In this document: piece by piece, positions 9,699 to 34,015 of the stretch | Position numbering within the stretch: the first letter of the stretch is position 1 | Layout of the letters: each line of letters opens with the position of its first letter | From: Patescibacteria group bacterium | GTDB lineage: Bacteria; Patescibacteriota; Gracilibacteria; JAHISY01 | Reading direction: 5' to 3' | Length of the DNA: 61,605 bases | Assembly (NCBI GenBank): GCA_043797545.1 | Contig: JAZDPN010000064.1 | Location: forward strand, 1-61,605 | The notes under the pieces: model-generated | Databases searched by the model: none | What the model saw: the letters and a program-made list of their open reading frames with translations, nothing else | What the model was told of the DNA's origin: nothing | Translations under genes and position numbers: made by a program

Positions 9699-9709
9699 TT
9701 GGAGAAAAA

Positions 9710-10065: not shown

Positions 10066-10068
10066 AAT

Positions 10069-10097
10069 TTGCGCCAAGAAAACTTTTCGCGTAAAAT
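10069..10097 (+). promoter_or_regulatory. candidate rpsB promoter (TTGCGC-N17-TAAAAT)
   Basis: Back-to-back with the ybaB promoter. Leaves a ~64-nt 5' UTR before rpsB. Confidence 0.45.
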
Positions 10098-10167
10098 CTC
10101 TTCACTTTTGCGGCGGATCGGGCCACTCCTCCCGAGCTGAAGCCACAAAAAATTTAACCCCAAAAGG

Positions 10168-10878
10168 ATGAATAACTCAGACGACCTACGCCGGCTGCTC
10201 GTGGCCGGACTCCACTTCGGACACAAGACCGCCAAGTGGAATCCCAAAATGAAACCCTATATTTTCGGGGAGAAAAACGGAATTCATATTTTTGATTTAG
10301 AAAAAACAGCGGCCTGCCTCAAGACTGCGATGGATTTTTTGACGAAAACGGCCAGCGAAGGCAAAACGATTTTATTAGTTTCGACCAAACAGCAAACTCT
10401 AGAAAGTCTGCCCGATCTGGCCATCGCGCTGAATTGTCCTTTTGTCACCCAGAAATGGTTTGGCGGACTCTTGACCAACTGGAAAACGACCAAGGAACGT
10501 CTCCGCCAATTGCGCGATCTTAAGAAAGAACGCGACGAAAATAATTTCGCGCGTTTCCTAAAAAAAGAGCGCAACCAAAAAATGAAGCAAATCGAAAAAC
10601 TTGAAAGCTGGCTCTCGGGCATCGAAAAACTGGAAAAAAAGCCTGATGTGCTTTTTGTCCTTGATGCTGTTCGTGACAAAATCGCCCTACGCGAAGCCAA
10701 AAAATGCGGTATTCCGGTCGTCGCCGTTTGCGATTCGAATGCTGATCCGAGCTTAGTCGACTTCCCGATCCCGGCCAATGATGATGCCGTCAAAGCGATC
10801 CAATTGATTTTAAATGAAGTCCACGAAGCGATCGAACGCGGCCAAAAGAGTCCGGCCGAGAAAAAATCGGAAAAATAA
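10168..10878 (+). CDS. rpsB: 30S ribosomal protein S2
   Basis: LLVAGLHFGHKTAKWNPKMKPYIFGEKNGIHIFDL is a typical S2. Confidence 0.95.
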   Translation: MNNSDDLRRLLVAGLHFGHKTAKWNPKMKPYIFGEKNGIHIFDLEKTAACLKTAMDFLTKTASEGKTILLVSTKQQTLESLPDLAIALNCPFVTQKWFGGLLTNWKTTKERLRQLRDLKKERDENNFARFLKKERNQKMKQIEKLESWLSGIEKLEKKPDVLFVLDAVRDKIALREAKKCGIPVVAVCDSNADPSLVDFPIPANDDAVKAIQLILNEVHEAIERGQKSPAEKKSEK

Positions 10879-10911
10879 TTTAGAATTTCCTCAAAATTAA
10901 TCTTTTGAGCA

Positions 10912-17896: not shown

Positions 17897-18457
17897 TTGA
17901 CCCTCTTTCTACTCTTCACGCTAGCTCATTTATTGGGCGACTACCCTTTTCAAACTAGCTGGATTTATCTCCAAAAAACTAAAGGTCTGCCTGGTCAACT
18001 GCTACATGTCAGCATTTTAGGAGCCTGTTTCTTAATCCTGACTGCTCCCCTGCTGAGCAATCGGATCGTATTAAACGCACTCACCCTGATTTTAGTCATG
18101 CATTTTTTGCAAGACTTTTTGAAAATTGAGCTGGTAAGCAAACGCGGTAAAATCCGCCCTTTTCCGGCTCTCGTACTTGATCAAGCGCTGCACTTCGCAC
18201 TCTTGTTTGGAGTGACGAACCGACTTAATTCAGTCAATCTAAAAATCGGTTTTGGGGCGGACCTACTCGGATCACCTAGTTTGCCCTGGATTCTGTTTTA
18301 CTTAGCCACTCTGATCTTGGGAACTTTTACCTGGGATGTCGTAAGATTTGTTTGGCGCAACGAAACGAAAGAGTTGCAACACGACTGGCTAGCGCTTGGC
18401 CTGCGCGGCGCGATTATTACAATTATTTTTGGGGCAGTTTATTTACTGGATTGCTGA
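17897..18457 (+). CDS. DUF3307-like membrane protein
   Basis: N-terminal HLLGDYPFQT motif and multiple TM helices. Its 3' end overlaps the convergent FecR-like gene by 19 nt. Confidence 0.65.
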   Translation: MTLFLLFTLAHLLGDYPFQTSWIYLQKTKGLPGQLLHVSILGACFLILTAPLLSNRIVLNALTLILVMHFLQDFLKIELVSKRGKIRPFPALVLDQALHFALLFGVTNRLNSVNLKIGFGADLLGSPSLPWILFYLATLILGTFTWDVVRFVWRNETKELQHDWLALGLRGAIITIIFGAVYLLDC

Positions 18458-20991: not shown

Positions 20992-21015
20992 TTATTTTTG
21001 TTTTAAAATCATGGC

Positions 21016-21024
21016 ATTTTAGCA
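21016..21024 (-). promoter_or_regulatory. extended -10 (TGCTAAAAT) for the FecR-like gene
   Basis: Plus strand reads ATTTTAGCA, ~25 nt upstream of the ATG at 20991. Confidence 0.5.
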
Positions 21025-21071
21025 CAAAACACCCAAAATCACAAACCAAAGTTAACCTTTTCGCCTTAAGC

Positions 21072-21461
21072 CTACGCTCCGATCCGTCTCACGATTTCGT
21101 TGAAAACTTCGGTCGAAAGTCCAAGTTTGACATTATTAAAGGCAGTCGTCGGCAAAAAAAGGGTTTCAAGTTTTTCAGCCGCGCGCACAGTCGCCGTCCT
21201 GGGTTTAGCAATCGCCAGTAAAGCCAGCTCGCCGAAAAAGTCATTGACATGCAAATCGGCAATCTTGCGCTCACCGCGCTCGACAAGCGCCGAGCCAGCT
21301 ATGATGACGTACATCCCATCTGGGATCGCACCTTCTTGAATCACGACCGCATTTTCGGCGAAATTTTTCTTGATGCAGGCCGCCGCCACGACACGCAAAT
21401 GATCAGTCGTCAGACCTTTGAAAAAAGGGAGTGTGCGCAGAGTTTCGATTAAATCATTCAT
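21072..21461 (-). CDS. stand-alone cyclic-nucleotide-binding domain protein (129 aa)
   Basis: FFKGL...VIQEGAIPDGMYVIIAGSA...FFGELALL...RTATVRA is a canonical phosphate-binding cassette. Lies 22 nt downstream of the cyclase gene. Confidence 0.85.
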   Translation of the reverse strand: MNDLIETLRTLPFFKGLTTDHLRVVAAACIKKNFAENAVVIQEGAIPDGMYVIIAGSALVERGERKIADLHVNDFFGELALLAIAKPRTATVRAAEKLETLFLPTTAFNNVKLGLSTEVFNEIVRRIGA

Positions 21462-21483
21462 CGCGGAAGGTAAATTAGCATTT

Positions 21484-23472
21484 TTATTTGATTTTTAAAA
21501 TCGTTTCTCCGCGCCAGTTCACGGGCGGTGGATTTTTGCGAAAGCGGGTAATCCTGGCAAGCATGACTGCCGAGGCGGGATGATGAATAGTGCGATAGAT
21601 CTGAACTGCTGTTTTGAAATCTCTTTTTCTATAAGCCGAGAACGCTTTCAGGCTTTTCTCCGCCAAACTAATCTGAGCCGCAGTCGCCGATTTTTTTTCC
21701 GCTAGTAATTCGTAAATTTCCGTAAATTCGCGCCGTCCTTTGACTACGACCCGATCAATCAAACGCGCCAGCAATTCCTTTTGGACTTTTTGGAAAGTCT
21801 CGCCGGAAATCAGAATTTGGGTGCCATAAATTTTATTCACGCCTTCAAGTCGGCTGGCGACATTGACCGCATCACCAATCGCGGTGTAATTGAAGCGAGT
21901 CGCTAAACCGAGGTTACCGACTACGGCTGGCCCGGTATGGATGCCAGTTCGCGCCTTGGGAACTTTGTCGGCCAGTATTTTTTTAGTAGCGAGCGCGGCC
22001 CGACAAGCCGCCAAGGCGTGATCGGGATTGGGCAGAGGCGCATTCCAAAAAGCCATGACGGCATCACCGATAAATTTATCAAGCGTGCCGCCGGCTGCAA
22101 GAACAGTCTTCGTAATCGCCCCTAGTCGCTCGTCGAGCATACGTACGACGGCAGAGGGAGACATTTTTTCAGAAATCTTGGTGAAATTTTCTAGATCGGC
22201 GAAAAAAATCGTCAGCTCGCGTTTCGCACCACCCAAACCCAAAGCCCGCGGATCATCCTCAATCTTGCGAACGAGCTCAGGCGCGAGATAACGCGAAAAA
22301 GCCTTTTGAAGATAGCGTAATTCTGCTCCTTTGCCGAAATAATGGTAGATGAGTGCTACGACCAAAATCGCCAGCGTTCCCCAAAGCAAAAAGGCAAAAG
22401 GCAGCAAAATTCCATTTTCGAAAGCAAAAATCGCTCCCAAAAGCTCGGCGAGAATTCCCAGTCCAAACAAAATCAAAGAAGTGACGAGCGGGAGCGTAAA
22501 AAACAAAATTCCAAAAATAATCAACGTCGCTCCAAGTAAAACCACAGCTCCTGATTGATTTAAGTTCTGAAGTGTCTGGCCGGAAAGCAGGGTCTGCAAA
22601 ATATTGGCATGAATCTCGACCCCGGACATCGCCTGCCCGGCCGAAACCGGAGTAAGTTGCTCATCATGAATGCCAGTCGCGTCAGTAAATCCAAGCAGGA
22701 CTATTTTGCCGCGGACTAAATCTGGATTGAAATTATTGTGAAAAATATCAGTGAAAGAAATGCGCGCAAAACTGCCGGGGCGACCGAAAAAATTAATTAG
22801 CAGCGAGCCATTTTCGAGTGGTGCGACGATCGGACCGTAAGTTTTTTGCAAAGCGAATGGTGATCTCAATTTGGATTGAGAAAAAACCAATCGATTGGGA
22901 GTCAGGCTTTGCGACGTTGTGCCAAAAAATTTTTCTAGGAGAACTAAGTCAAAATTCGCGATTTTACCGGAAAAAATAGGAACGCGACGCACCACCCCAT
23001 CGACTTGGTCGGCCGCAAGATTGGTAAAACCAAAATCAGCCGCGGCGCGAAATTCCGACAAAGGCAGTAGATCGGAATCGACATTTTTCTGAGCTGCCAA
23101 AACAAGATTGGGATTTAGGTTGAGCGTCTCGGTCAACAGCGCGTCATCAGCAGAAGTAGCAGCCTCGGAAAAAATCACATCCAAGCCAATCACTGCCGCT
23201 CCAGCGGATTGCAGATTGCGGAGCGCGGTCGCGAAAAATCCACGCCGCCAGTCTTGCCAGCGTCCCAAAACCGGATCGGCCAAGCTCGCATCGTCAATCG
23301 CAACTAGAATAACTTCAGGAGCAGCCCGATTTGTAGTCGAATAAATCCTGTCTTGTAGCGCGAGCTGCCAGCCGCCAAAAATTCCCTGGCCATAGAACCA
23401 AGTCCATAAAAAAGCGTTCAAAAGAATCAGCCCGGCCGAAACGAAAAACTTTTGGCGTTTATTTTTTTCCAC
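21484..23472 (-). CDS. CHASE2 sensor domain-containing class III adenylate/guanylate cyclase
   Basis: N-terminal TM plus a periplasmic CHASE2-like region, a 3-4 TM block, then a cyclase homology domain (LTIFFADLENFT, KFIGDAVMAFWNAP, RTGIHTGPAVVGNLG, YTAIGDAVNVASRLE). GTG start. Confidence 0.88.
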   Translation of the reverse strand: MEKNKRQKFFVSAGLILLNAFLWTWFYGQGIFGGWQLALQDRIYSTTNRAAPEVILVAIDDASLADPVLGRWQDWRRGFFATALRNLQSAGAAVIGLDVIFSEAATSADDALLTETLNLNPNLVLAAQKNVDSDLLPLSEFRAAADFGFTNLAADQVDGVVRRVPIFSGKIANFDLVLLEKFFGTTSQSLTPNRLVFSQSKLRSPFALQKTYGPIVAPLENGSLLINFFGRPGSFARISFTDIFHNNFNPDLVRGKIVLLGFTDATGIHDEQLTPVSAGQAMSGVEIHANILQTLLSGQTLQNLNQSGAVVLLGATLIIFGILFFTLPLVTSLILFGLGILAELLGAIFAFENGILLPFAFLLWGTLAILVVALIYHYFGKGAELRYLQKAFSRYLAPELVRKIEDDPRALGLGGAKRELTIFFADLENFTKISEKMSPSAVVRMLDERLGAITKTVLAAGGTLDKFIGDAVMAFWNAPLPNPDHALAACRAALATKKILADKVPKARTGIHTGPAVVGNLGLATRFNYTAIGDAVNVASRLEGVNKIYGTQILISGETFQKVQKELLARLIDRVVVKGRREFTEIYELLAEKKSATAAQISLAEKSLKAFSAYRKRDFKTAVQIYRTIHHPASAVMLARITRFRKNPPPVNWRGETILKIK

Positions 23473-23478
23473 AGGGAA

Positions 23479-23487
23479 ATTTTAGCG
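23479..23487 (-). promoter_or_regulatory. -10 element (CGCTAAAAT) 6 nt before the cyclase GTG (leaderless geometry)
   Basis: Plus strand reads ATTTTAGCG, followed by 6 nt and the CAC at 23470-23472. Confidence 0.5.
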
Positions 23488-23511
23488 CAAAAGCGCGGCG
23501 TACTAAAAAAC

Positions 23512-23586
<75 letters not shown>

Positions 23587-23597
23587 ACGAGGCCTGA

Positions 23598-23606
23598 ATT
23601 TTAGCG
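23598..23606 (-). promoter_or_regulatory. -10 element (CGCTAAAAT) 11 nt upstream of the tRNA-fMet 5' end
   Basis: Plus strand reads ATTTTAGCG. Confidence 0.45.
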
Positions 23607-23788
23607 AATTGTTTATTTTTTTCAAACTAAAAAGTGTTTTATTCGCTTTTGCTAGAAATTAAATTTTTAAGTCAATTAATTGATTTACGCAATGAGCGAC
23701 CTAAAACTCTGGTCCTCTTTGGTTTTAACTTTTACTCTCTTGTTGCGAATTACAAAAGCTGCCTCGATATAATTACACTCAAGTAAAA

Positions 23789-24109
23789 TTACATGCTGGC
23801 CAGCGCATCTGACAACAAAGTATCTGCCAATTGAGCCTCTTTCTTCTGCTTACGATCATCAAAAGCGCTCAAATTCTTAAAGTGAATGCTATTAATTTCA
23901 TGTTTTAACTTGATCAGAATTTCGGGCGGCAAGCCTTTAACCAACTTTTCATCACGGCTTTTAAGTTCCAATAAACGCATCTGCAAAGCTTGCAAGCTTG
24001 CCACATTCATTTTTGGCAGCGCTTGAAGCATTTTGATTTTTTTCGATTTTTCTAAACTAATTGCAGTCAAAAGTAATTCTTTGACGGAATTTTGGAGGGA
24101 ATTTTCCAT
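23789..24109 (-). CDS. hypothetical helical protein (106 aa)
   Basis: ATG at M6 of ORF 23789..24124, 7 nt after the stop of the upstream small ORF. AT-rich, predicted all-helical, no known motif. Confidence 0.5.
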   Translation of the reverse strand: MENSLQNSVKELLLTAISLEKSKKIKMLQALPKMNVASLQALQMRLLELKSRDEKLVKGLPPEILIKLKHEINSIHFKNLSAFDDRKQKKEAQLADTLLSDALASM

Positions 24110-24116
24110 AAAAAAA

Positions 24117-24314
24117 TTAAGCACCTCTAGTGCGAATTTGGTTAATGCCGGAAGTAGTAGAGTTATCCGCTACTTGCCGATAATTCTCAAGAGCCTGACG
24201 AGTCGCGTCAGCAACATCCATTTGGCTTTGTTGATTTAAATCGGCATCTTGAGAAAAATTTTTTCGTACAAGATCAAGAACCTCCTGCCCTAACTTAGCG
24301 CTTTGCTGCTCCAA
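24117..24314 (-). CDS. hypothetical small protein (65 aa)
   Basis: TTG ORF, first gene of a 2-gene unit divergent from the 833-aa gene. Q/D-rich and helical. Confidence 0.4.
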   Translation of the reverse strand: MEQQSAKLGQEVLDLVRKNFSQDADLNQQSQMDVADATRQALENYRQVADNSTTSGINQIRTRGA

Positions 24315-24486
24315 AGTCGGGCTGGATTCAGTCCGACTTTCCGAACCTTGCGGAATATCGAGCTTTTTTGGTGTTTCTGGAGAGATTTTATTTTAATTTA
24401 AATTTAATTTTCGACTTGTTTTTCCGAATCTGTTAGTGTGAAAATTTCATATTTCTATCTTCAGATAGTTTTCAATGTTTCCTGGC

Positions 24487-24495
24487 ATTTTAGCA
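24487..24495 (-). promoter_or_regulatory. extended -10 (TGCTAAAAT) driving the two small minus-strand genes
   Basis: Plus strand reads ATTTTAGCA. An inverted repeat CTATCT-TC-AGATAG (24455-24468) lies ~20 nt downstream of it. Confidence 0.45.
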
Positions 24496-24552
24496 AAAAT
24501 ATGCGCGGATCTCAATCTCAAACAGTTGAGTTTTAATTTATTTTTAATCTAA

Positions 24553-27054
24553 ATGGAGCCTCCCGACTTACTTCGCGAAGACCCGCTCTTAACTGAAATT
24601 TTGGCAAAAATCGAGAATTGCATGCGTAGCTTCGATTTCGCTGCTCATAAAAAAGAACTCGAATCACAAAAACAGGCGAGAAAACGGCAAGGATTAGTGC
24701 TTTTCCGAGAAGATGATGACATAGCTATAGATCAAGATATTGAGGACGGCAATATCGCCGGACTCTCGAGAAGAGCTTCCGAAATTCAAAAAACTCGAAC
24801 TGACGAGCGGGCTCAAGCGCAGATTTTAAATCTGTATGAATTGATCGGATTACTACATCGCGCCAAAAACAATTTTGCCGGTTTTTTAGCTGGTTTCCAA
24901 AAAACCTTGGATTTTTTCGCAAAAGACCAGCTGAATTTTTCGGAACTTAGATTAAATTTACAAATTAGGGTCATTTATGCTTTAGAACAGCTGGTGGGCT
25001 ACGCGATCACTTATTCTCACGATTTTAATGAGGCCCTTTTATTAATGGAAAGGCTTGAAGAAAAAATTGAGCAACTTGATCCAAAGCTAATCGATGTCGA
25101 TACTTTCCGAGATAATCTGCGTCTCAATAGAGCTTCGGTATATCGCCGGCTCGGCAAACACAAGAAAGCAGAAGGCTTATTGTCCGAAGATCAGCACGAA
25201 GTACACTACCCGCAAAATCTAATACATCGCTACGTATATGTTTGTGAGCTTGCCCGAGCCAAGAGAGATCGTGAACAAATAAGACTTTGCTCTGATAATT
25301 TGCTTTTATTGATCGGAGGAATTAACGGGCAAGGCAAATTCGCTAATTTTTTCCAACAGCTTTTTATAGATCTCAGCGCAGCAGAAAAAAATGAAATTAC
25401 TGTGCGTATTCAAAAAGAATATCTGCTTTGTCTGCTGGAATTAGATCAACTTCCTGAATATGAGTCTAAGAAGATATCCTGGTCGGAAAGTTGGCGAGAA
25501 AACATGGCTAGCCAACCAGCTGATTTAGCAATACTTGAAGGAGATTTACTCTTAAAAGAAGCTGGAAAGTCGGGAACGGCCGATGATTCTGCGGATAGAA
25601 AATATCAAGGAGCAATAGGGCTGTATCAGGAAAATAACTTGGATTTTTGTGCTACCGAAGCTGTCATCCGCTATCTAAATAAATTTAAAGAAAAATTTCC
25701 TAGAGAAAAGTTGGAAGAGCTTTTTCTACGCCACTGGCAAATCGTCGAAAAAAATATCGGCCAAACAGTAATGCAGGTCTTCGCAGCCGAACATCAAGAA
25801 ACTGCCAGGGTTTCCTCTGTTCTATTCGAAATTGCCGAGTTGATAAAGTTCTTATACGGCACAGAAGGCTCAAACAAAGAAAAAACCTTACAGCAAGCAT
25901 TAATCTCTCTCGGTAAGAAAAACTTAACGGCCGCGAAAGAGAAAATAATTTTGCAAAATGACGATAACCCTGAGGATCAATATCGCAAATTAAGTGAGGC
26001 TTTCGGTGCGAAGGGTCTGCTAGCAATAAGCAAAGATGAAGGCGGAATGTGGAAAAAGGAATATTCTGCGCGAGCTGAAAAAGATGATTTCGACTGGCGA
26101 TATTTACTCGACCTCCCGGAAATTCAGGCAAAAATAGCCGAGGCAGACCGGACACAAAAAATGACCGAATTAAAATTTGTATTTACAAACACAAAATGTA
26201 CTGACGCTGCGATGCATTTAGTTTTTTTGCCCAATGAACCTGGACGGATCTCAATTGTTGACCGTGGCAGCAGACTTGGATTCTCGGACGCGGAAAAGCA
26301 ATTAATGCTGCCAGAGAAATTTCCACCGAAACGCATTCAAACAGGAGTCACAACAACTGTTGATAGAGACTACCAGCAAATTCAGCGGGCGATTGCGATG
26401 TTCTACCTGGAAAGAATTCCGCGCTTCCAAATTACGGCGGCCGAAAATATCGTCTATGCCTGGACCGAAGAAGACGGCCAAAAAAAAGTTCTCGGTGGTT
26501 TGTCAGCCAATATTTTGGAAAATGAAATTAACCACGCGGCTGGCGAGCATCTCAGCTATCCGGAAATTTTTGGCGGAGAGAATTTTTGGGAGACTTTAAA
26601 AACAGAGGTCGATAAGCAACTACAAGCTGGATCGCTATCACCGATTTGGCAAGAAGCTTTTCAACAAAAAGGTGAAGTCAAACGCGAACAATGCGCCGAG
26701 ATCGGCGGACTAGCCGCACGCGATGGAACAATAGCTCCAGCGATATTCCTGCAAACAACCAAGTTCTGCTTGGAAAAGAAACGACCCTGGATGATCATGA
26801 TTCGCAATGCAAGAGTCGAGCGCCTATTTAAACTAATCGGCATCGAAGCTGTGGACTTGGGATATGCCAATATCCAAGACAAAAAAGTACGAGCGGAGCT
26901 GTGCCAATCTGGTTGGGACACAGCAGGACTCACCGCCTGGGAAGCAGATTATTTCAATCGAGAATTGAATCCGAGGATGGTCATCCTAAATACTCAGCAA
27001 GCCCAAAATGCAATCTTGGCTTTCTTCCAAAAGAGGAATCGACCGCTAAAATAA
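24553..27054 (+). CDS. large hypothetical protein (833 aa): helical-repeat N-terminal region plus C-terminal GNAT/N-acyltransferase-like domain
   Basis: AT-rich ATG ORF. The first ~600 aa are helical/TPR-like with no motif I recognise. The last ~228 aa (nt 26368-27051) carry EIGGLAARDG...(25 aa)...WMIMIRNARVERLFKLIGIE...WEADYF...NPRMV. From memory this resembles the thermostable-hemolysin / N-acyl amino acid synthase branch of GNAT-fold enzymes. Confidence 0.75.
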   Translation: MEPPDLLREDPLLTEILAKIENCMRSFDFAAHKKELESQKQARKRQGLVLFREDDDIAIDQDIEDGNIAGLSRRASEIQKTRTDERAQAQILNLYELIGLLHRAKNNFAGFLAGFQKTLDFFAKDQLNFSELRLNLQIRVIYALEQLVGYAITYSHDFNEALLLMERLEEKIEQLDPKLIDVDTFRDNLRLNRASVYRRLGKHKKAEGLLSEDQHEVHYPQNLIHRYVYVCELARAKRDREQIRLCSDNLLLLIGGINGQGKFANFFQQLFIDLSAAEKNEITVRIQKEYLLCLLELDQLPEYESKKISWSESWRENMASQPADLAILEGDLLLKEAGKSGTADDSADRKYQGAIGLYQENNLDFCATEAVIRYLNKFKEKFPREKLEELFLRHWQIVEKNIGQTVMQVFAAEHQETARVSSVLFEIAELIKFLYGTEGSNKEKTLQQALISLGKKNLTAAKEKIILQNDDNPEDQYRKLSEAFGAKGLLAISKDEGGMWKKEYSARAEKDDFDWRYLLDLPEIQAKIAEADRTQKMTELKFVFTNTKCTDAAMHLVFLPNEPGRISIVDRGSRLGFSDAEKQLMLPEKFPPKRIQTGVTTTVDRDYQQIQRAIAMFYLERIPRFQITAAENIVYAWTEEDGQKKVLGGLSANILENEINHAAGEHLSYPEIFGGENFWETLKTEVDKQLQAGSLSPIWQEAFQQKGEVKREQCAEIGGLAARDGTIAPAIFLQTTKFCLEKKRPWMIMIRNARVERLFKLIGIEAVDLGYANIQDKKVRAELCQSGWDTAGLTAWEADYFNRELNPRMVILNTQQAQNAILAFFQKRNRPLK

Positions 27055-27058
27055 ACAA

Positions 27059-29164
27059 GTGCAAATAATAGTGTTTCTGCTCGCGCTCACGATCCTCTTC
27101 AATATTGTTGTTGCCATCACAGCTTTTTTAAAAACCAAGCGCAAGGACGCGGTAGTCTTTTTCGCGATTTATCTCTTGGGAGATATTCTCTGGACTGCAG
27201 GAATTCTCTATGCGATTTTGCACGCGCGCGAAACAGTTTTCCTCCCAGGCAGCACGGTCTTCGAAGTAATGAAATTGGTTTTTCTGGCGCCGCTTATTCT
27301 GTTAGTCGCACAAAATCTTTTTATCCAAACTTTACTTGGCGGCGTCAAACTGATGAAGACGAAGTTCAACTACTTTATTTTGGCTCTGACCATCATCACA
27401 GCCAGCATAATTCTTTTTGACAACACTCTGTTCTCAAGCGTGAAGGTTTATTTTGAGGGCTACATTGAGGTCGCGCGTGGCTTCATGAAAATTCCCTATT
27501 CACTTTTAGTCGTTTTTTACTACTTCTACCCGTTTTTTATTGTTAAAAAAAATCTAAAAAAACTGGATGACGAATTAAGTAAAAAACGAATCCGTCTTCT
27601 GCTTTGGACACACGGAATCGTGTATGGCAGCGGCATGATCACAAACATGATCCTTTCGGCTTTTCTCGGTATGCCGCAGCTAACCGGTATTGGCCCGATT
27701 TTTTCGCTAATCACGGCCGCGTTCTTTGTCTATGCGGTAACACGTTATCGCTTTCTCGACATCAAGTTCGTCATTTCCAAGACGGTCAAGATCGCCATCG
27801 CGTTGCTTTCGGCTTTCGGCACAGCCTACCTGCTGCCCAGATTTCTAGGAATTTTTTTGACAGGAAAATATATTACATATCTCAACCCCTTCAGTTTAAT
27901 CGCGGCATTGGCGGTTTACCTGTCTAGCATCCGGTTTTTTAATTCGGATAAATTTCACCGCTTTTTTGGTATTTCCAACGTGGAATATTTCCGAGCTACC
28001 ATCAAAGAATTTCGAAATAAAAACATTATCTACACAAATGTGCACGAACTCAGAAAGGATTTGCACGAAATTTTTTCTGTAAAATTAAGAGTCGATTTTG
28101 TCGATGTCCTCCTCTGGGATGATGAAAGCCGCAAAAAATTTCCACGTCTTTTAAAATTCGTTTCGCAGAGCAGCGAAACTTTAGTCTTGAAAGAACTGCT
28201 ATTTCTGAGCCAGAATAATCCCATTAAAAAAATGCTAGCCCAAGAAATTGAGAAATTGGGCGAAGTCATCGTCCCGCTTTTTCAGCCTTCTCGTGAACCA
28301 ATCGGCCTATTACTGCTCGGCAAAAAAGTTTTCGGGGATCCCTACTATGTCGGAGAAATCGAGGCGTTGCAGCGCGCCCAGTCACATCTCAGTCTGCGTT
28401 TGACCGGTGCAATTTTCAACTCGCAGCTCAAAAAAGAAGTACGCCGTAAAACCGAAAGCCTCAAAAAACAAAATGAGCGCATCCGTGAATTAATGCGCCA
28501 ACAAGCTGATTTTATCGCGGTCTCGGCGCACGAGCTTCGTACGCCGCTCTCTATCGCGATTTTACAAACCGAAATGCTCGAGGCTAGCTTGGCCAATTCT
28601 GACAAAGAGGATGATGCCAGGAACGCAAGCGAGGCTCTGCACAAATTGCAGGACTTGGTTCAAAAACTTTTTACAGTTCAAAAATTTGATATTAAAAAAG
28701 TTGACTTGAGCCTACGAAAAATCCGGCTAAGCGATTTTCTGGCTAAAATTTTCCGAGACTTTGAGGCCGTCATGCGAGAAAAGGCGATCGATTTTCGGCT
28801 CGAAAATAAGTTGAATCTTAATTTCACAGTCGCGCTTGATCCGCTCCAAATCCGACAGGTCTTACAAAATGTTTTATCCAATGCCGTGAAATTCACTCCT
28901 CGCAATGGTCGAGTCGTTTTACGGGCCGAGCAGCATGGTGAAAATGTTTTACTCGCAATTCGCAATTCGGGCAGCCTGATTCCTGATCAGGACAAAAAAG
29001 CGATCTTCGAAAAATTTCGCAGCTTGCGCAATTCCAAAAGCAAAGGTCTCGGACTCGGACTCTACTTGGCCAAAAAAATTATCGAGCTGCACCGAGGCAA
29101 AATCTGGGTCGAAGATGTCGATCGCGAAACCGAATTTCGGATTCAACTTCCCAGCAACGTCTGA
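27059..29164 (+). CDS. sensor histidine kinase with ~8-9 TM N-terminal sensor domain
   Basis: About 290 aa of closely spaced TM helices, a cytoplasmic linker/GAF-like region, H-box FIAVSAHELRTPLS, N-box LSNAVKFTP and G-box GLGLGLYLAKKIIELHRG. GTG start 4 nt after the upstream stop. Confidence 0.9.
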   Translation: MQIIVFLLALTILFNIVVAITAFLKTKRKDAVVFFAIYLLGDILWTAGILYAILHARETVFLPGSTVFEVMKLVFLAPLILLVAQNLFIQTLLGGVKLMKTKFNYFILALTIITASIILFDNTLFSSVKVYFEGYIEVARGFMKIPYSLLVVFYYFYPFFIVKKNLKKLDDELSKKRIRLLLWTHGIVYGSGMITNMILSAFLGMPQLTGIGPIFSLITAAFFVYAVTRYRFLDIKFVISKTVKIAIALLSAFGTAYLLPRFLGIFLTGKYITYLNPFSLIAALAVYLSSIRFFNSDKFHRFFGISNVEYFRATIKEFRNKNIIYTNVHELRKDLHEIFSVKLRVDFVDVLLWDDESRKKFPRLLKFVSQSSETLVLKELLFLSQNNPIKKMLAQEIEKLGEVIVPLFQPSREPIGLLLLGKKVFGDPYYVGEIEALQRAQSHLSLRLTGAIFNSQLKKEVRRKTESLKKQNERIRELMRQQADFIAVSAHELRTPLSIAILQTEMLEASLANSDKEDDARNASEALHKLQDLVQKLFTVQKFDIKKVDLSLRKIRLSDFLAKIFRDFEAVMREKAIDFRLENKLNLNFTVALDPLQIRQVLQNVLSNAVKFTPRNGRVVLRAEQHGENVLLAIRNSGSLIPDQDKKAIFEKFRSLRNSKSKGLGLGLYLAKKIIELHRGKIWVEDVDRETEFRIQLPSNV

Positions 29165-29499
29165 ACCCGCTCAAGTAAATTTTTGAGAGAGAGATCGACC
29201 TTGACCCAGTAATCATCCGCGCCAGCCGCCAGCGCGCGATCACGCAGCTCAAAAGGGCTGTAATTGGAAAAAACTACAATCTTGGCCTCAGGAAAGCGCT
29301 TTTTAGTTTGAGGGATCAATTCAATCCCGTCCAACTCTTCATCTGGTAAACCATGGTCCAATAGAATCAGATCCGGGCTGAAATCCCTGACTGAAGAAAT
29401 CGTCGGCGAGAGTCGTGCCTCAAATCCCGATCGCTCAAGATGCCCGCGATAAATTTTGCCAAGCTTTTCTTCATCCTCAACAATTAGGATTTTTTGCAT
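29143..29499 (-). CDS. single-domain response regulator (receiver only)
   Basis: MQKILIVEDEE, LILLDHGLPD (phospho-Asp), VVFSNY and a conserved Lys region. Start moved to ATG M7. Its 3' end overlaps the kinase 3' end by 22 nt, convergently. Confidence 0.85.
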   Translation of the reverse strand: MQKILIVEDEEKLGKIYRGHLERSGFEARLSPTISSVRDFSPDLILLDHGLPDEELDGIELIPQTKKRFPEAKIVVFSNYSPFELRDRALAAGADDYWVKVDLSLKNLLERVQTLLGS

Positions 29500-29506
29500 C
29501 GTGCTG

Positions 29507-29512
29507 ATTTTA
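29507..29512 (-). promoter_or_regulatory. -10 hexamer TAAAAT 7 nt before the receiver ATG (leaderless geometry)
   Basis: Minus strand reads TGTTTAAAAT-CAGCACG-ATG. Confidence 0.45.
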
Positions 29513-29514
29513 AA

Positions 29515-29542
29515 CAAAACAAGCCGTTTTTTTTCCTGGCTT
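29515..29542 (-). terminator. weak intrinsic terminator after metF
   Basis: AAGCC/GGCTT stem (5-6 bp, A-rich loop) followed by GTTTTGTTT on the minus strand. Confidence 0.3.
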
Positions 29543-29555
29543 CACTGTGATTTAA

Positions 29556-30368
29556 TTATTTTTTAAGAAAGTCGAAAATCTTATTGGCACTTTCGGTCCG
29601 ACCGAGCGGCATGATATGCACTCCAGCTAGACGATCTCGCAGCTTTGTCAGAAGCTCAATCGCCAAATCAGCACCGCAATTTTCATCCTTTTCTAGGCGT
29701 GCCAAAACGGATTTGGGAATCGAGACACCGTGCACTTTCGAATTGAAATACTCCGCAACCTTCAAGCTCTTGAGCGGCATGATGCCAAGCAGGACCGGAA
29801 TTTTGATACCGGCTTTCTGAACTGCCGTGAGAAATTTTTCAGCCGTTGCGACATCGAAAACTGGTTGCGTTTGGACGAATTGCGCGCCGGCCGCTTCCTT
29901 TTCTTTCAAATATTCGATCTGTCCTGCGACATTCGGATTAGCGGCGACTGCTATTTTCAAGTCAGTTGGCGATTTAGTCGGCTTACCGAGAAATTCACCC
30001 TGATTCAAATCGCGAATCAAACTGACCAAACCAGGCGCACGAATTTCGAAAACATTTTTTGCGCCAGCATCGCCTGAGAGCGCGAGAATTCCCGTCAAAC
30101 CAAGATTGCCAGCCGCCAAAATTTTTTGGGCCAAGCCGAGCCGGGTCGAGTCGCGGCAAGTCAAATGCGCGATGGCTGGAGTCTGGGTCGCCTCTTGAAC
30201 TCGGAAAGCCAAAGTAATCGGATCGATTGTCAATCGGCCCAAAATTCCATCTGGGATATTGAAAGCATCCGCCCGCAAACTTTTAGCCTCTTCAGTGACT
30301 TTCGTAAGATCGGTTCCCGCCAAAGAACTTAGCTCAACCGTAACCGGAAAATTCCTTAAATCCAGCAT
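29556..30368 (-). CDS. metF: methylenetetrahydrofolate reductase
   Basis: 270 aa. Contains AIAHLTCRDS and a TIM-barrel MTHFR pattern (IPVLLGIMPL, FVQTQPVFD). Confidence 0.85.
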   Translation of the reverse strand: MLDLRNFPVTVELSSLAGTDLTKVTEEAKSLRADAFNIPDGILGRLTIDPITLAFRVQEATQTPAIAHLTCRDSTRLGLAQKILAAGNLGLTGILALSGDAGAKNVFEIRAPGLVSLIRDLNQGEFLGKPTKSPTDLKIAVAANPNVAGQIEYLKEKEAAGAQFVQTQPVFDVATAEKFLTAVQKAGIKIPVLLGIMPLKSLKVAEYFNSKVHGVSIPKSVLARLEKDENCGADLAIELLTKLRDRLAGVHIMPLGRTESANKIFDFLKK

Positions 30369-30375
30369 TTTCTTA

Positions 30376-30384
30376 ATTTTAGCA
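30376..30384 (-). promoter_or_regulatory. extended -10 (TGCTAAAAT) 7 nt before the metF ATG (leaderless geometry)
   Basis: Minus strand reads TTTGCTAAAAT-TAAGAAA-ATG. Confidence 0.55.
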
Positions 30385-30419
30385 AATTAATTTGTGCTTC
30401 ATGCTCAATGTTCCATGTT

Positions 30420-31502
30420 TCATGTTCTGACCCAATGCATACCGCCCAAATTTTTGGCTAAGCCTTTCATCTCGAGCAAACTCAAAATTGCAGCTGCTTG
30501 ACTAGCGGCCAGTCCAGTTTCGCGCGAAATCTCATCAGCGTGTTGCGCCGTCTTTTGCAGGATTTGAAGAATCTGGGTTTCTTCAGCCGAATTGGCGATC
30601 GCCTCACGAACTTTGATTTTTTCCGGCAAATCGCACAACTCCAGAGAATCCAAAACATCAACCGCCGCGACGATCGGCTTGGCGCCTTGTTGGATCAAAC
30701 GAATCGGGCCGACCGAATTTTCGGAAAAAATCGAGCCCGGCACAGCAAAAACTTCCCGACCAAATTCATTGGCCAGTGAAGCGGTAATCAGACTGCCTGA
30801 CTTTTCACGACCCTCAGAAACTACAACTCCCCGCACGAGTCCAGCAATAATCCGATTGCGGAGCGGAAAATTATAGGCATTGGGCGGCGTCCCAATCGGA
30901 AATTCAGAAATAATCGCCCCGCCTTTGGACAAAATTTCTTCTCCCAGGCTTCTATTTCTGGGAGGATAAATCGAGTCAATTCCGTTGCCGAGCACTGCAA
31001 CCGTCCGGCCACCGACCTCGAGCGCGGCCTGGTGGGCAATCGCATCCGCCCCGAGCGCTAAACCGGAAATAATCGAAATACCGGCTATCGCCAAATCACG
31101 GGAAATCGCATGAGTCGCCTGGCGCCCGTAATAAGTCAAGATTCTCGAGCCGACCACCGCAATCGCGAAATCATCAGCCGGAATCGGAAACTCACCGCGC
31201 ACCAGCAAAACCGGAGGCGGATCGTAAATCGTTTTTAAAAGTTTAGGATAATTTTCAGAGCTAATCGGTAAAACCTTGGCGCCGATTTTTTGCAGCTTGG
31301 CGAAAACCTGATCCGGATCAATTTTTTCCTTTTCAGCCCAAATCTCAGTAACCGCTTTGAATTCTATCCCCGCTTCCTGCCAATCGTGGCGCGACGCTTT
31401 CCAAATCTTTTCGGCATCGTTTTGAAAAAACTGCAAAAGCCGACCGAAGCGTAAAGCAGTCAGTTTTTCGAGCGAATTCAGCGCAGCGAAATACTTCTCC
31501 AT
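30420..31502 (-). CDS. dprA: DNA-processing protein DprA
   Basis: Rossmann-like DprA core (VVGSR..T.YG, ISGLALGADAIAHQAAL, AVLGNGID.IYP, FPLRNRIIAGL) plus a C-terminal winged-helix-like tail. Confidence 0.92.
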   Translation of the reverse strand: MEKYFAALNSLEKLTALRFGRLLQFFQNDAEKIWKASRHDWQEAGIEFKAVTEIWAEKEKIDPDQVFAKLQKIGAKVLPISSENYPKLLKTIYDPPPVLLVRGEFPIPADDFAIAVVGSRILTYYGRQATHAISRDLAIAGISIISGLALGADAIAHQAALEVGGRTVAVLGNGIDSIYPPRNRSLGEEILSKGGAIISEFPIGTPPNAYNFPLRNRIIAGLVRGVVVSEGREKSGSLITASLANEFGREVFAVPGSIFSENSVGPIRLIQQGAKPIVAAVDVLDSLELCDLPEKIKVREAIANSAEETQILQILQKTAQHADEISRETGLAASQAAAILSLLEMKGLAKNLGGMHWVRT

Positions 31503-31516
31503 TTTGCCATTTCAGC

Positions 31517-32056
31517 TTACCAAAAAGTTTTTTTGAGGCCGAGGAAATAAGCCGACAAATTGACCAAAGGATTCGCGATCGAAGCAAAAAGCAGTAAAAA
31601 TAGACTCGCGCGCCATTCCCAATTAATTAAAAAATTGGTAAAAACTAAAAATCCCAAAATGTAATCAATCTGGTCAAGCGGTAAGAATGGTCGTCCGGGA
31701 GCAATACGCCAAAGCCTTTTGAGAAAACTGCCCGCCAAATCTCCGACCAAAGCACCCAGTCCGGCCAGCGCGCCGAAAAGCAAAAATTGCCCAAGATGCT
31801 CCAAGAGACCAGTCGAGTAGATTTGGTACTTTTGAAAACAAAACTGGAGCGCGCCAATTAGCGCGCCACCAAGCGTCCCGGCCAATAGGCCGCGCCAAGA
31901 CTTGTTTTGGCCGAAAATCTCGCGACCCAGAAATTTTTTACCGCAATCAACTGGCCGCGCCAAAACCGGGCAAAAATTAATTTTCGTCGCCAAGACTGGC
32001 AACATATTGGCCACAAAAGCCGGGAGTGCGAGATACAAAATCGCAAAATAGCTCAT
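31517..32056 (-). CDS. CarS-like (CDP-archaeol synthase family, DUF46) integral membrane cytidylyltransferase
   Basis: 179 aa. LPAFVANMLPV, GQNKSWRGLLAG, GDLAGSFLKR and GRPFLPLDQIDYILG match my recollection of the CarS family blocks. Confidence 0.75.
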   Translation of the reverse strand: MSYFAILYLALPAFVANMLPVLATKINFCPVLARPVDCGKKFLGREIFGQNKSWRGLLAGTLGGALIGALQFCFQKYQIYSTGLLEHLGQFLLFGALAGLGALVGDLAGSFLKRLWRIAPGRPFLPLDQIDYILGFLVFTNFLINWEWRASLFLLLFASIANPLVNLSAYFLGLKKTFW

Positions 32057-33009
32057 TTTTCAGATATTTTAAACCAATCGCGTAAACTTTTTTCGAGTGA
32101 AAATTGCGGTCGGAAGCCGAGTTCGCGGGAAATTTTTTTGGAATCGAAAACTCTTTTTTGGAAACCGAGAAAAATATTCTCGGCTGGAATCGGCGCGCCG
32201 AAAAATTCGGCGATGCGCGCGCAGCCGCTCGCCAGAGAACAGAGGTTTTGCGGCAAAATTCGAATCACAGTTCTTTGGCCCAGCACTCGCGCTGCTGTCC
32301 CGAAAAGTTTTTGAGAGGAAATATTTTCACCGAGCGCAATGAAATTTTCTTTCGGTTTGGCTTTGACCAAAACCAACCGAATCGCGGTCGCGAGATCACG
32401 CACATCGATAAAAGCATTGGCGCCATCGGGAACGAAAATCCGTTTTTTATTTTTCACGAAATCGAAAATCCGCACGGCGGAAGTCGGGTCGCCCGGGCCG
32501 AGCACGAGCGGCGGAAAGACTATATTTGTAGGGATTTTCGCCGAATCGATTTGGAAATTGGGAAAAAATTTGGAATGCGAGTAAGTCAGGTTTTGAAACT
32601 TTTCCCAAGCAAATTCGGTCGTCTCGGAAATTTTTTTCTGGCCGAAACCGAGCGCAGCGCTGGATGAAATTTGAACCAAGCGCGCGACTTTTTTTTGCTC
32701 GCAAACGCGCAAAAGATTGAGTGAACCGAGCGCGTTGATCTCGAAAACTTTACTGCGATCTTTGCGCAAAAAAGAAACCAATCCGGCCAAATTCACGACC
32801 CAATCGCGCGCGCGAATAATTTTGGCAAACGATTGCGGACGAGTCAGATCGACCCGCGAGAAATATTGAACGCCCGGAATTTTATTTTTCGGCGCGGAAC
32901 GATTCAAGGAAATAATTTGTTTAAAACCGCTTTTTTTTAAGGCTGCAATCAATTCACGTCCGACAAAACCATTGCCGCCAAACACGAGAAGTCGATCGGT
33001 TTTTTTCAC
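32053..33009 (-). CDS. NAD-dependent epimerase/dehydratase (extended SDR)
   Basis: LLVFGGNGFVGRELI Rossmann motif and a YxxxK region (YSHSK). GTG start at V22 of the ORF overlaps the pgpA stop (GTGA). Confidence 0.8.
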   Translation of the reverse strand: MKKTDRLLVFGGNGFVGRELIAALKKSGFKQIISLNRSAPKNKIPGVQYFSRVDLTRPQSFAKIIRARDWVVNLAGLVSFLRKDRSKVFEINALGSLNLLRVCEQKKVARLVQISSSAALGFGQKKISETTEFAWEKFQNLTYSHSKFFPNFQIDSAKIPTNIVFPPLVLGPGDPTSAVRIFDFVKNKKRIFVPDGANAFIDVRDLATAIRLVLVKAKPKENFIALGENISSQKLFGTAARVLGQRTVIRILPQNLCSLASGCARIAEFFGAPIPAENIFLGFQKRVFDSKKISRELGFRPQFSLEKSLRDWFKISEK

Positions 33010-33482
33010 ACAAAATAAATTAAAACCAAAACTCCGAGCGCGGCGTACAGTCCGGCGACGAGATCGTCCCAAAAAACCGAAGCGGGCGTTTTGCGAGCAT
33101 CGATTTTGCGGATTCCCCAGATTTTGGAAATATCAAAAAGACGAAAAAGTAAAAAGGCCGCGCCGATCAAGAGCCAATTTTTAGGAAAAAAGAAAAGTGG
33201 AAAACAGGCGACCAGCATCCCGGCGAACTCATCCAAAACTATCCAGCTCGAATCAGGATCTTTCTTAGGAGCAAAATTTTTGGTTGCCGCGATCCCCGAC
33301 CAGCAAACCAAAAGCAGCAAAACGATCCAAAAAGTGATTTGCGTCGGGAACGAAAATTTTTGAAAAAGGAGGTCGAAGCCGAACAAAATCGGCAAAGCGA
33401 GCAGCGATCCGGCCGTGCCCGGAGCGATCGGCACGAAGCCGATGCCAAAAAGCGAAAGCCAAAATCGAGCCAAGGATTTCAT
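33006..33482 (-). CDS. pgpA: phosphatidylglycerophosphatase A
   Basis: FGIGFVPIAPGTAGSLLALP, DEFAGMLVA and RLFDISKIWGIRKID are typical of PgpA. Confidence 0.88.
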   Translation of the reverse strand: MKSLARFWLSLFGIGFVPIAPGTAGSLLALPILFGFDLLFQKFSFPTQITFWIVLLLLVCWSGIAATKNFAPKKDPDSSWIVLDEFAGMLVACFPLFFFPKNWLLIGAAFLLFRLFDISKIWGIRKIDARKTPASVFWDDLVAGLYAALGVLVLIYFV

Positions 33483-34015
33483 TTGCGAAAAAAATTTTTG
33501 AGATAAATCGCGCCCGAAAAATACGCGGACAAAACAGCAAATGCAGCCGAAACCTCAGCGAGTCGGGTGAATAAATTTTGCGCGGGGAAAATGAGTGCAA
33601 GGAGCACGAAATTGAGCATCAAAACCTGAAAAACCATTTTCAATTTTCCCGAAAAAAGCGGCGCAATCGGCCGATTTTGCGAGAGCGAAAAATTTTTCAC
33701 TCCGTCGATCACGAGCTCGCGAATCAAAAGTAAAACGAAAACCCAAACCGGCAAAATGCCGGTCGGCGCGAGCAAAAGATACAAAGTCAGCGTGAGAATT
33801 TTGTCGAAAAGAGAGTCAAAAACCTTGCCAAATTTCGACTCGACTTTCCATTTTCTAGCTAAAAATCCGTCGAAAAAATCTGTCAACGACGCGAACCAAA
33901 ACAACGCGAAAATTATTTCGAATTGAAACGGAATCGCGACGAAAAATAAAACCACGATCGCGAGCGTCGCGAGAAAACGCGCGACAGTGAGAATATTTGG
34001 AAGATTTTTTTTCAC
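33479..34015 (-). CDS. pgsA: CDP-alcohol phosphatidyltransferase (phosphatidylglycerophosphate synthase-like)
   Basis: NLPNILTVARF ... DFFDGFLARKWKVESKFGKVFDSLFDKI contains the D(x)2DG(x)2AR...G(x)3D(x)3D motif. GTG start at V63 of the ORF is supported by a -10 element 7 nt upstream. Confidence 0.88.
   Translation of the reverse strand: MKKNLPNILTVARFLATLAIVVLFFVAIPFQFEIIFALFWFASLTDFFDGFLARKWKVESKFGKVFDSLFDKILTLTLYLLLAPTGILPVWVFVLLLIRELVIDGVKNFSLSQNRPIAPLFSGKLKMVFQVLMLNFVLLALIFPAQNLFTRLAEVSAAFAVLSAYFSGAIYLKNFFRK

Follow-up and report, generated by a model that had tools for sequence, protein, structure and literature searches.

A rare TPR-GNAT protein linked to a HisKA_7TM-type sensor kinase: a candidate signalling cassette in Patescibacteria

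Several systems that perceive a hydrophobic ligand of the cell's own making share one arrangement, in which the gene for the synthase stands beside that for a polytopic kinase: LuxM-LuxN, CqsA-CqsS, LqsA-LqsS and PhcB-PhcS-PhcR are examples. Others are marked by the way they vary: in agrBDC (AgrBDCA, Staphylococcus) it is the maker of the signal and its sensor that are variable. The same pattern is documented for comQXP pherotype loci, where the modifying enzyme, the pre-peptide and the N-terminal polytopic domain of ComP are variable and the cytoplasmic domain of ComP is conserved (PMC4008528); indeed, the N-terminal domain, with 8-10 transmembrane (TM) helices, is far more variable than the cytoplasmic one, and some alleles lack the TM domain (PMC4008528). 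Here we describe a locus that resembles the synthase-next-to-kinase systems in arrangement, comQXP and agr in population structure, and LuxI and FeeM in fold. It lies in a 61,605-nt stretch of DNA from a Patescibacteria group bacterium (positions 1 to 61,605 of contig JAZDPN010000064.1, assembly GCA_043797545.1, forward strand; hereafter the window) and comprises an 833-aa open reading frame (ORF A), a polytopic histidine kinase of 701 aa directly downstream, and a 118-aa single-domain receiver on the opposite strand. To our knowledge little is known of how bacteria of the candidate phyla radiation (CPR)/Patescibacteria sense each other or their hosts. The reading we favour, to which we give a chance somewhat short of even, is that ORF A makes or matures an acylated signal, which is read in the membrane by the co-inherited seven-TM (7TM) sensor of the kinase and drives a resident kinase core and the 118-aa receiver.

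The original prediction, made from the sequence of the window, had likened the locus to luxM-luxN: a putative acyltransferase gene, followed at a distance of 4 nt by a kinase with 8-9 closely packed TM helices and almost no periplasmic loops. The observation itself is confirmed. ORF A ends with TAA at 27052-27054 and the kinase gene opens with GTG at 27059, 4 nt further on, and ends at 29164 (the interval 27059-29517, to which the prediction was attached, spans the kinase and the receiver only); the two reading frames, with their domain E-values, far exceed chance expectation. Hydropathy together with the positive-inside rule, a rough method, places nine TM helices in aa 3-295 of the kinase, with external loops of at most 17 aa, the N-terminus outside, and the C-terminus with the kinase domain in the cytoplasm (16 Lys and Arg inside vs 4 outside). 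A synthase-like gene followed by a polytopic kinase is the arrangement of LuxM-LuxN, CqsA-CqsS, LqsA-LqsS and PhcB-PhcS-PhcR (homology to their synthases or sensors was not found), and nine TM helices, an external N-terminus and short external loops are also features of LuxN. What is not supported is a homologous relationship to luxM-luxN: no LuxI, FeeM or LuxN model matched, and the kinase, in which Pfam finds no Response_reg domain, is not a hybrid, unlike LuxN and CqsS, which are hybrid kinases feeding a phosphorelay.

The evidence that carries our reading concerns inheritance. In a pherotype, a hypervariable maker and TM sensor are co-inherited on a conserved core and regulator. An exhaustive HMMER (phmmer) search of 1.84 billion representative proteins returned seven true relatives of ORF A, those that are named belonging to Patescibacteria and Gracilibacteria. 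One (P0122) is a fragment of 180 aa that is 54% identical to ORF A over aa 12-178, a match that supports the assigned start at 24553; the others (P0123 to P0127 and P0129) are 789-867 aa long and 18-24% identical to ORF A. In every locus with downstream sequence (8/8 including the window, the loci counted being the window, L010/11, L012, L013/14, L015, L029 and L030) the gene for a kinase of ~675-708 aa begins 0-23 nt behind ORF A or its homolog, and the TM regions of these ORF-A-linked kinases are homologous to that of the window (blastp E 2e-31 and 3e-29). The synteny comparison called for by the original prediction thus finds the pair of ORF A and kinase wherever ORF A occurs; it also finds that the closest relatives of the window carry other genes in the same slot.

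Of these closest relatives the most informative is L001, a contig of the Patescibacteria metagenome-assembled genome that is the source of P0003, the best full-length relative of the kinase (50% identical). L001 is syntenic with the window on both flanks, and comparison of the two shows the window kinase to be a mosaic. Residues 1-241 resemble the ORF-A-linked kinases (blastp: L014 39%, 3e-57; L010 30%; L012 25%; L015 28%), the likeness to L014 ending at aa 241, and aa 1-217 find no blastp match in L001. The core (aa 461-701) is 81% identical to L001 and nearly unrelated to the cores of L010, L012 and L014. The segment between them (aa 301-460) is 45% identical to L001-type kinases and 26% to L015 (E 2e-4), with no significant match in L010, L012 or L014. 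At the level of DNA (blastn) homology between the window and L001 extends over 21094-23626 and 28386-33500; the replaced stretch, 23627-28385, lies between a tRNA-Met gene and the kinase core, and a short island of similarity within it marks the recombination junction. A second case is provided by L010 and L014, which come from the same metagenome and have different genomic contexts. Identity between the two kinases is 22-38% as far as aa ~200 and rises to 100% over aa 241-560; at the level of DNA it is 95% from aa 231 on, and the switch, at aa ~231, falls in a RYxFLD motif; upstream of it, ORF A is 24% identical, and of two small genes divergent from ORF A, s2 is 25% and s1 53% identical. Both junctions (window/L001 and L010/L014) lie in the same RYxFLD motif. 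In two independent cases, then, ORF A and the 7TM region have been exchanged as one unit against the kinase core.

Further relatives show that the accessory genes co-vary with the presence and the type of the 7TM domain. L001 and L007 hold in the slot two conserved genes unrelated to ORF A (encoding a 254-aa protein with a weak AdoMetDC-like match and a 296-aa Zn-ribbon protein) together with a sensor type of their own; L003-5 combine an empty slot with a kinase that has no TM domain. The likeness to ComQXPA of Bacillus is close in these respects: an enzyme, a small hydrophilic variable protein and a TM sensor vary together on a constant kinase core and regulator, a pattern found in both comparisons (window/L001 and L010/L014), and the TM-less alleles of ComP have a counterpart in the L003-5 kinases without TM domain and accessory genes. 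The differences are equally plain. The enzyme here, a TPR-GNAT protein, is related neither in sequence nor in fold to the isoprenyl transferase ComQ or the membrane peptidase AgrB; in contrast to comQXPA and agr, the small genes are divergent and the receiver is a single domain on the opposite strand, and a peptide signal is here a proposal only.

A second architecture, one without TPR, leads in the same direction. In L031 (3750-7700) the order is an OmpR-type regulator, a SAM (S-adenosylmethionine) methyltransferase, a 221-aa T_hemolysin-like protein without TPR (PF12261 E 1.5e-4, below cut-off) and a related 7TM-GAF kinase; L018 (4256-8058) has the same order of SAM-dependent methyltransferase, 243-aa protein and kinase, the OmpR-type regulator being found in L031 only. 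This layout resembles that of the PhcB type (methyltransferase, kinase and regulator, as in the methyltransferase-type synthase operon phcBSR). The topologically consistent alignments of the L018 and L031 proteins to the C-terminus of ORF A (hhalign 4-6% for L018, 23% for L031) are a hint of relationship; a homolog search with the L018 protein returned itself and two 79%-identical relatives only.

ORF A is predicted to be cytoplasmic (hydropathy detects no TM segment) and to consist of a TPR-like solenoid, a small alpha/beta domain and a C-terminal GNAT domain. The full protein was modelled with AlphaFold2 from a seven-sequence family alignment (mean pLDDT 78.8) and aa 480-833 were modelled separately (pLDDT 81.0). 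The acyltransferase-like domain of the original prediction is borne out by these models. Among the 50 Foldseek matches listed for the full model, the sole proteins that are not helical repeats are LuxI-type acyl-homoserine lactone (AHL) synthases, and the top eight PDB matches of the C-terminal model are again LuxI-type synthases (E 6e-6 to 9e-5). Individual values are 6e-6 for MesI (6wns), 2e-5 for TofI (3p2f) and for LasI (1ro5), 4e-5 for BjaI (5w8a) and 1e-3 for EsaI (1kzf), with target-normalised TM-scores (TMt) of 0.54-0.63; in the same search generic GNATs (Rv2747, GCN5) appear from ~3e-4 and FeeM (2g0b) at 5e-4, and agmatine, polyamine and arylalkylamine N-acetyltransferases are also returned. 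The modelled C-terminus is therefore best described as an acyltransferase fold, closest to the signal-synthase branch by a modest margin over generic GNATs. The distance from known synthases is nonetheless large: sequence identity to LuxI-type structures is 7-13%, there is no Autoind_synth match, ORF A carries in addition a 480-aa TPR and the small alpha/beta domain, and its partner is a membrane kinase, not the LuxR receptor of LuxI systems. In the family alignment the position of the LuxI beta4 Arg appears to be taken by an invariant Gly (G718), and helix 1 carries a conserved Y-x-x-E motif. The only Pfam match of ORF A is PF12261 (T_hemolysin), which we take to be a GNAT-clan family: aa 705-775 score 29.8 bits against a cut-off of 27, and the match spans profile positions 76-146 only (71/174). 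PF12261 is a borderline match where FeeM is a structural neighbour, and its profile of 174 positions describes a single domain; NCBIfam gave zero matches for ORF A.

The helical N-terminal part (~58% of ORF A) finds APPBP2, LGN, APC and the Rap proteins in Foldseek (4gyo TMt 0.57; Rap range 0.47-0.57). Its similarity to the TPR receptors of the Rap/RRNPP type (4gyo, 4i9c) is generic, and these, unlike ORF A, have no GNAT domain. The same set of full-model matches (TMt 0.47-0.57) includes chain 9f1b_DB of a NatA/E-ribosome structure, presumably the TPR subunit Naa15; in NatA (Naa15/Naa10) TPR and GNAT reside on separate polypeptides, whereas ORF A joins both, and here too the TPR similarity is generic. 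In the literature searched we found no description of a TPR-GNAT protein linked to a HisKA_7TM sensor, and nothing specific on PF12261 or on quorum sensing in Patescibacteria.

The sensor of the window kinase is too diverged for a direct match to the Pfam family HisKA_7TM (PF16927; with an E limit of 0.1 hmmscan gave none). A profile built from the ORF-A-linked sensors, on the other hand, aligns with PF16927-positive kinases of Patescibacteria over 227 columns (hhalign 99.4%, E 5e-21). By this profile-profile match the sensor is a divergent HisKA_7TM domain, behind which lie two more TM helices and a GAF-like domain. The order 7TM, 2 TM, GAF-like, HisKA and HATPase_c is common to many kinases of Patescibacteria; the GAF-like label of the window segment is taken from homology to relatives that match GAF_2/GAF_3 in the equivalent region, the window kinase itself having no GAF match. 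Nine TM helices joined by external loops of at most 17 aa fit a ligand perceived within the membrane. Neither the name of the Pfam family nor, in the parts available to us, the papers that name it indicate a ligand or a partner for HisKA_7TM. The original prediction would have fallen with a synthase-like domain unrelated to acyltransferases, a gene pair that is not conserved, or a kinase N-terminus from a family with a known, unrelated ligand; what we find is an acyltransferase fold, a pair present in all eight loci and a sensor family of the kind just described, and its reading of the genes as signal synthase and receptor is to that extent partly supported.

Downstream of the sensor the features of a classical two-component system are present. 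Pfam recognises HisKA (aa 482-542, E 1e-8) and HATPase_c (aa 594-699, E 3e-23); the H-box (HELRTPL), the N-box and the G2 box (GLGLGL) are intact, and the G1 box is atypical. It reads RNSGS at 28949-28963 (aa 631-635) in place of the usual DxGxG, and L001 carries the same RNSGS, so that the deviation is conserved and no defect of the window copy. The receiver opens from a first TTG at 29517 (29143..29517, minus strand) or, giving the 118 aa, from ATG at 29499; reading of the sequence shows the acidic pocket (E8/D9), the phospho-accepting D48, S78 and K100. As the original prediction held, its 3' end overlaps that of the kinase by 22 nt (29143-29164), and it is the sole receiver-domain ORF in the window. 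It is not an orphan, however: a convergent single-domain receiver follows the kinase in L001-L007 (that of L001 is 84% identical, with an identical 22-nt overlap), and the receiver is therefore a conserved partner of this kinase lineage.

If the reading we favour is correct, the locus would be a two-component system whose input end has been replaced by a mobile, self-matched cassette. The cassette would consist of s2, s1, ORF A and the first seven TM helices of the kinase, joined at the conserved RYRFLD motif, where TM7 ends, to a diverged segment of resident type that comprises TM8-9 and the GAF-like part; from aa ~443 on the kinase is the resident core, whose conserved partner is the convergent receiver. 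Cytoplasmic ORF A, with its TPR, its GNAT domain and its LuxI-like fold, would catalyse the making or maturation of an acylated, membrane-partitioning signal – either a small molecule (an N-acyl amine or amino acid) or a peptide that stems from the hypervariable s2 and has been acylated – and this, once exported, would be perceived within the membrane by the matched HisKA_7TM-type sensor, which is nearly without external loops. Binding would alter autophosphorylation at the H-box His (HELRTPL), from which the phosphate would pass to D48 of the receiver. That ORF A makes a signal is supported by the observation that ORF A and the 7TM region were swapped as a unit twice, as in comQXP pherotype loci. 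A more specific version, which we consider unlikely as it stands, would see here an unrecognised pherotype-style quorum sensing in CPR/Patescibacteria, in which s2 is the pre-signal, the TPR of ORF A binds s2 (with s1 as a possible chaperone or adaptor), the GNAT domain acylates it, HisKA_7TM reads the resulting lipopeptide, and cassettes swap at RYxFLD onto different cores.

A number of observations weigh against a signal-making ORF A. The lead of LuxI-type synthases over generic GNATs is only ~1-1.5 orders of E-value, and the TM-scores are alike (0.55-0.63). Sequence searches do not repeat the structural result: the Autoind_synth (PF00765), LuxI and FeeM families match neither ORF A nor its C-terminal 233 aa (hmmscan, E up to 10), sequence searches of the PDB with profiles A1 and A4 return nothing meaningful and no LuxI chain, and 0/6 ORF A homologs match PF12261 at E up to 0.01. 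AHL synthases have conserved N-terminal SAM-pocket residues and an E-x-S-R motif on beta4; across the seven family members the GNAT-like domain has no invariant polar residue, the beta4 Glu is kept in 4/7, and the window ORF A is without five residues that include a P..R motif found after beta4 in other members. The best conserved part of the family, by phmmer, is the TPR-like region and not the enzyme-like domain. Neither an exporter nor a processing protease is found in the cassette; s1 and s2 are absent in L015 and none were detected in L029 (the region upstream of ORF A in L030 is not covered). The acyl donor is uncertain, since CPR bacteria commonly lack fatty-acid synthesis. Finally, not every linked kinase looks active: those of L010 (7040-9073) and L014 (4109-6136) keep the H-box His and the N-box Asn and miss the G1 and G2 boxes, and that of L012 (4351-6426) is without an H-box. 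The kinases of L029, L030 and L015 are canonical within their sequenced extent.

Several of these points are what one would expect of the main rival to the signal model. Here ORF A would make no signal and would serve the sensor as an accessory subunit within the cell: the TPR would dock on the cytoplasmic loops of the 7TM domain, and perhaps on s1 and s2, and the GNAT domain would sense a metabolite of the acyl-CoA type or covalently acylate the kinase or a partner, so that kinase activity would be set from the inside. We judge this less probable than not by a clear distance, and yet it accounts for much. The TPR-like part is both the largest (58% of ORF A) and the best conserved, the GNAT domain is without invariant catalytic residues, ORF A, s1 and s2 are all cytoplasmic, the gaps of 0-23 nt suggest stoichiometric co-production with the kinase, and the joint exchange of ORF A and the 7TM region would also be accounted for if the two proteins shared an interface that co-evolves. 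SET domains are typically protein methyltransferases, and a SET-domain protein stands upstream of other HisKA_7TM kinases. What the accessory subunit leaves without an obvious cause is the extreme diversification of ORF A, which is 24% identical where the kinase cores are 100% identical: an internal interface does not call for it, and it is typical of signal-receptor specificity groups (PMC4008528). Moreover, synthases of small-molecule signals rank before protein acetyltransferases among the nearest folds, and in L031 and L018 the same position is held by T_hemolysin-like proteins without TPR, accompanied by a methyltransferase of small-molecule type.

The same methyltransferases can be taken in another direction. 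ORF A might be an enzyme that modifies the envelope or its lipids, or that N-acylates polyamines or amino acids, in a housekeeping or host-interaction role, with the 7TM kinase as a feedback sensor of membrane state. The GNAT fold with its agmatine, polyamine and arylalkylamine N-acetyltransferase neighbours agrees with this, as do the genes around such kinases (AdoMetDC-like directly upstream in L001 and L007, SAM-methyltransferase directly upstream in L018 and L031, a RimK-like gene near the kinase of L008) and the phospholipid head-group genes that lie a few kb off in the synteny block of the window. We nevertheless hold it to be improbable: hypervariability, the swapping of enzyme and sensor as a unit, and the rarity of the protein (7 relatives in 1.84 billion representatives) are all left unexplained. 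Homology in the strict sense to LuxM-LuxN of Vibrio, or to an AHL system of the LuxI type, is suggested by the synthase-like gene ahead of a nine-TM kinase and by the LuxI-like C-terminal fold, and is close to refuted by the lack of any Autoind_synth, LuxI or FeeM match at E up to 10, by a kinase without C-terminal receiver whose sensor is HisKA_7TM, and by the 480-aa TPR of ORF A; we know of no LuxI or LuxM protein with a TPR domain. As little credence is due to the notion that the two genes stand side by side without functional significance, ORF A being an island gene that was carried along. tRNA genes are classic integration sites of islands, one lies beside the insertion here, the GC content is low (0.37-0.41), and L001 and L003, the closest relatives, have no ORF A; linkage in 8/8 loci across proteins that are only 18-24% identical, and exchange of ORF A with the sensor in two independent cases, contradict it.

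Should the signal model hold, its consequences would reach beyond this genome. The locus is a concrete candidate: its TPR-GNAT protein is rare and its linkage to one sensor subtype obligate, and the natural domain swaps tie the enzyme-like ORF A to the 7TM domain and not to the kinase core. Reduced episymbionts would, if the product proves to be a signal, possess a pherotype-like form of communication with a new architecture for the signal maker; if the pherotype-style reading is true, it would supply the first ligand class for HisKA_7TM and would be the first description of a self-signalling circuit in ultra-small episymbionts. The conserved RYxFLD junction, in turn, suggests a splice point for engineered chimeric sensors.

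Coordinates of features in the window, with the basis or description of each (aa, residues of the protein named)
Feature	Position	Strand	Description and basis
tRNA-Met (CAT)	23512..23586	(-)	ARAGORN; Rfam tRNA 66.9 bits; left edge of replaced segment
s1	23789..24124	(-)	conserved helical protein, predicted cytoplasmic, transcribed divergently from ORF A; about 100-106 aa, with ATG 24109 as the likely start
s2	24117..24314	(-)	hydrophilic, hypervariable; 65 aa here, 78-95 aa elsewhere; upstream of s1, 8-nt overlap
Intergenic region between divergent s2 and ORF A	24315..24552		AT-rich; GC 0.37-0.39; sequence
ORF A	24553..27054	(+)	833 aa, predicted cytoplasmic; TPR-like solenoid, small alpha/beta domain, GNAT (LuxI-like) domain
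TPR-like all-helical repeat domain, ORF A aa 1-484	24553..26004	(+)	AlphaFold2 secondary structure, Foldseek
Small alpha/beta domain, ORF A aa 488-570	26014..26262	(+)	AlphaFold2 models; assigned to none of the known folds
GNAT-fold domain, ORF A aa 596-827	26338..27033	(+)	Foldseek; borderline PF12261
7TM sensor, ORF-A-linked type, kinase aa 1-241	27059..27781	(+)	blastp, hhalign, topology
Recombination junction	27746..27784	(+)	39-nt island, 90% identical to L001; encodes (R)YRFLDIK, end of TM7
TM8, TM9 and GAF-like cytoplasmic domain, kinase aa 242-460	27782..28438	(+)	resident lineage type; blastp by segment, sliding identity
Dimerisation/phosphotransfer (DHp) and catalytic core, kinase aa 461-701	28439..29164	(+)	Pfam HisKA, HATPase_c; 81% identical to L001
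Single-domain receiver, 118 aa	29143..29499	(-)	Response_reg E 5e-13; convergent with kinase
TAAAAT box	29507..29512	(-)	7 nt upstream of receiver ATG (29499-29497); candidate -10 element

The two small genes form a pair, divergent from ORF A, in four locus types including the window. Equivalently placed homologs of s1 occur in L010/L011, L012 and L013/L014 (phmmer 4e-15 to 4e-6; profile; alignment A6), and s1 has no Pfam match. The position of s2 is likewise kept in the four locus types; its sequence likeness is barely detectable, with a weak NFS(C/Q)...QQ motif. Hydropathy detects no TM segment in either protein. The PADLOC defence models match none of ORF A, s1 and s2, and give generic domain matches only for the kinase and the receiver. 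The region between s2 and ORF A presumably holds both promoters; one sigma-70-like site (10/12) in it is directed at s2, and the promoter and terminator scan gave a number of sites not above shuffle expectation.

For the receiver, the TAAAAT-N7-ATG promoter noticed in the original prediction is present as described (29512-29507, ATG at 29499). The 28 nt before the ATG, TAAAAT included, are conserved in L001 with the same N7 spacing, L003 has TAAAAT at N6, and the middle of the spacer has diverged among relatives; this retention of TAAAAT in L001 and L003 supports a functional -10-like element, although the box was not called by the two-hexamer promoter scan. We infer from its distance to the ATG that the mRNA may be leaderless or near-leaderless. 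Read-through into the receiver from the MTHFR gene, 56 nt upstream, may also occur.

On both sides of the variable slot the window and L001 share the order cNMP-binding (cyclic nucleotide) protein, CHASE2 adenylate cyclase, [variable slot], kinase, convergent receiver, MTHFR, DprA, CarS-like protein and epimerase, and the flanking proteins are 64-91% identical. The left flank (18439-23472 in the window, 1-5978 in L001) is a conserved signalling neighbourhood with a large FecR/DUF5667-like protein, the cNMP-binding protein and the CHASE2 adenylate/guanylate cyclase, to which L001 adds a T2SSE-type ATPase and a second cNMP-binding protein. DNA homology to L001 stops (blastn) at 23626, ~40 nt past the tRNA-Met gene, which was the sole match of the Rfam scan; beyond it the GC content of the cassette region is lower, 0.37-0.41 vs about 0.47-0.50. 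The part of the kinase gene just downstream of the junction (27782-28385, aa 242-442) is of the resident lineage type and yet diverged: it is 45% identical to L001 in protein, vs 81% for the core, with no similarity to L001 at the DNA level, and either a third donor or fast evolution of the linker after the sensor swap could account for this.

The alternative occupants of the slot deserve description. The pair of ~254 aa (weak AdoMet_dc match) and ~296 aa (Zn-ribbon, CxxC...CxxC) is found at 6235-7899 in L001, 4282-5946 in L007 and 4495-5991 in L008, and the N-terminal part of the ~296-aa protein recurs, fused to a SET domain, in a protein of 498 aa encoded ahead of another HisKA_7TM kinase. 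Genes of enzyme-like kind seem to be a recurrent feature in front of HisKA_7TM kinases. The two genes of L001 and L007 were also compared with ORF A for hidden homology, which was rejected (blastp E 0.08 and 0.5; hhalign probability 0.5%). In L003 (4139-5180; also L004 and L005) the orthologous kinase has 429 aa, and the ~1-kb gap upstream holds a tRNA-Met only, 89% identical over 76 nt to that of the window, with no remnant of sensor or accessory genes.

Some minor observations concern the recovery of the family and the origin of the cassette. A word-index homolog search with ORF A returned itself only, one candidate relative (P0128) was dropped as a repeat-protein artefact, and the divergence within alignments A1 and A2 was too great for scanning loci; A3 was usable and found few close relatives. 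In L029 an intact kinase of 708 aa (9612-11738) was overlooked by the public gene call, which places short minus-strand ORFs only in the interval: automated context tables can thus hide a conserved partner. With blastn, comparison of the cassette to the other ORF A loci revealed no donor at the DNA level. Repeats that are 84-88% identical, some of them inverted, flank the ORF A cassettes of L010 (3067-3855, 9263-9414 and 13758-13908) and L014 (56-924), and may be mobile-element or recombination repeats.

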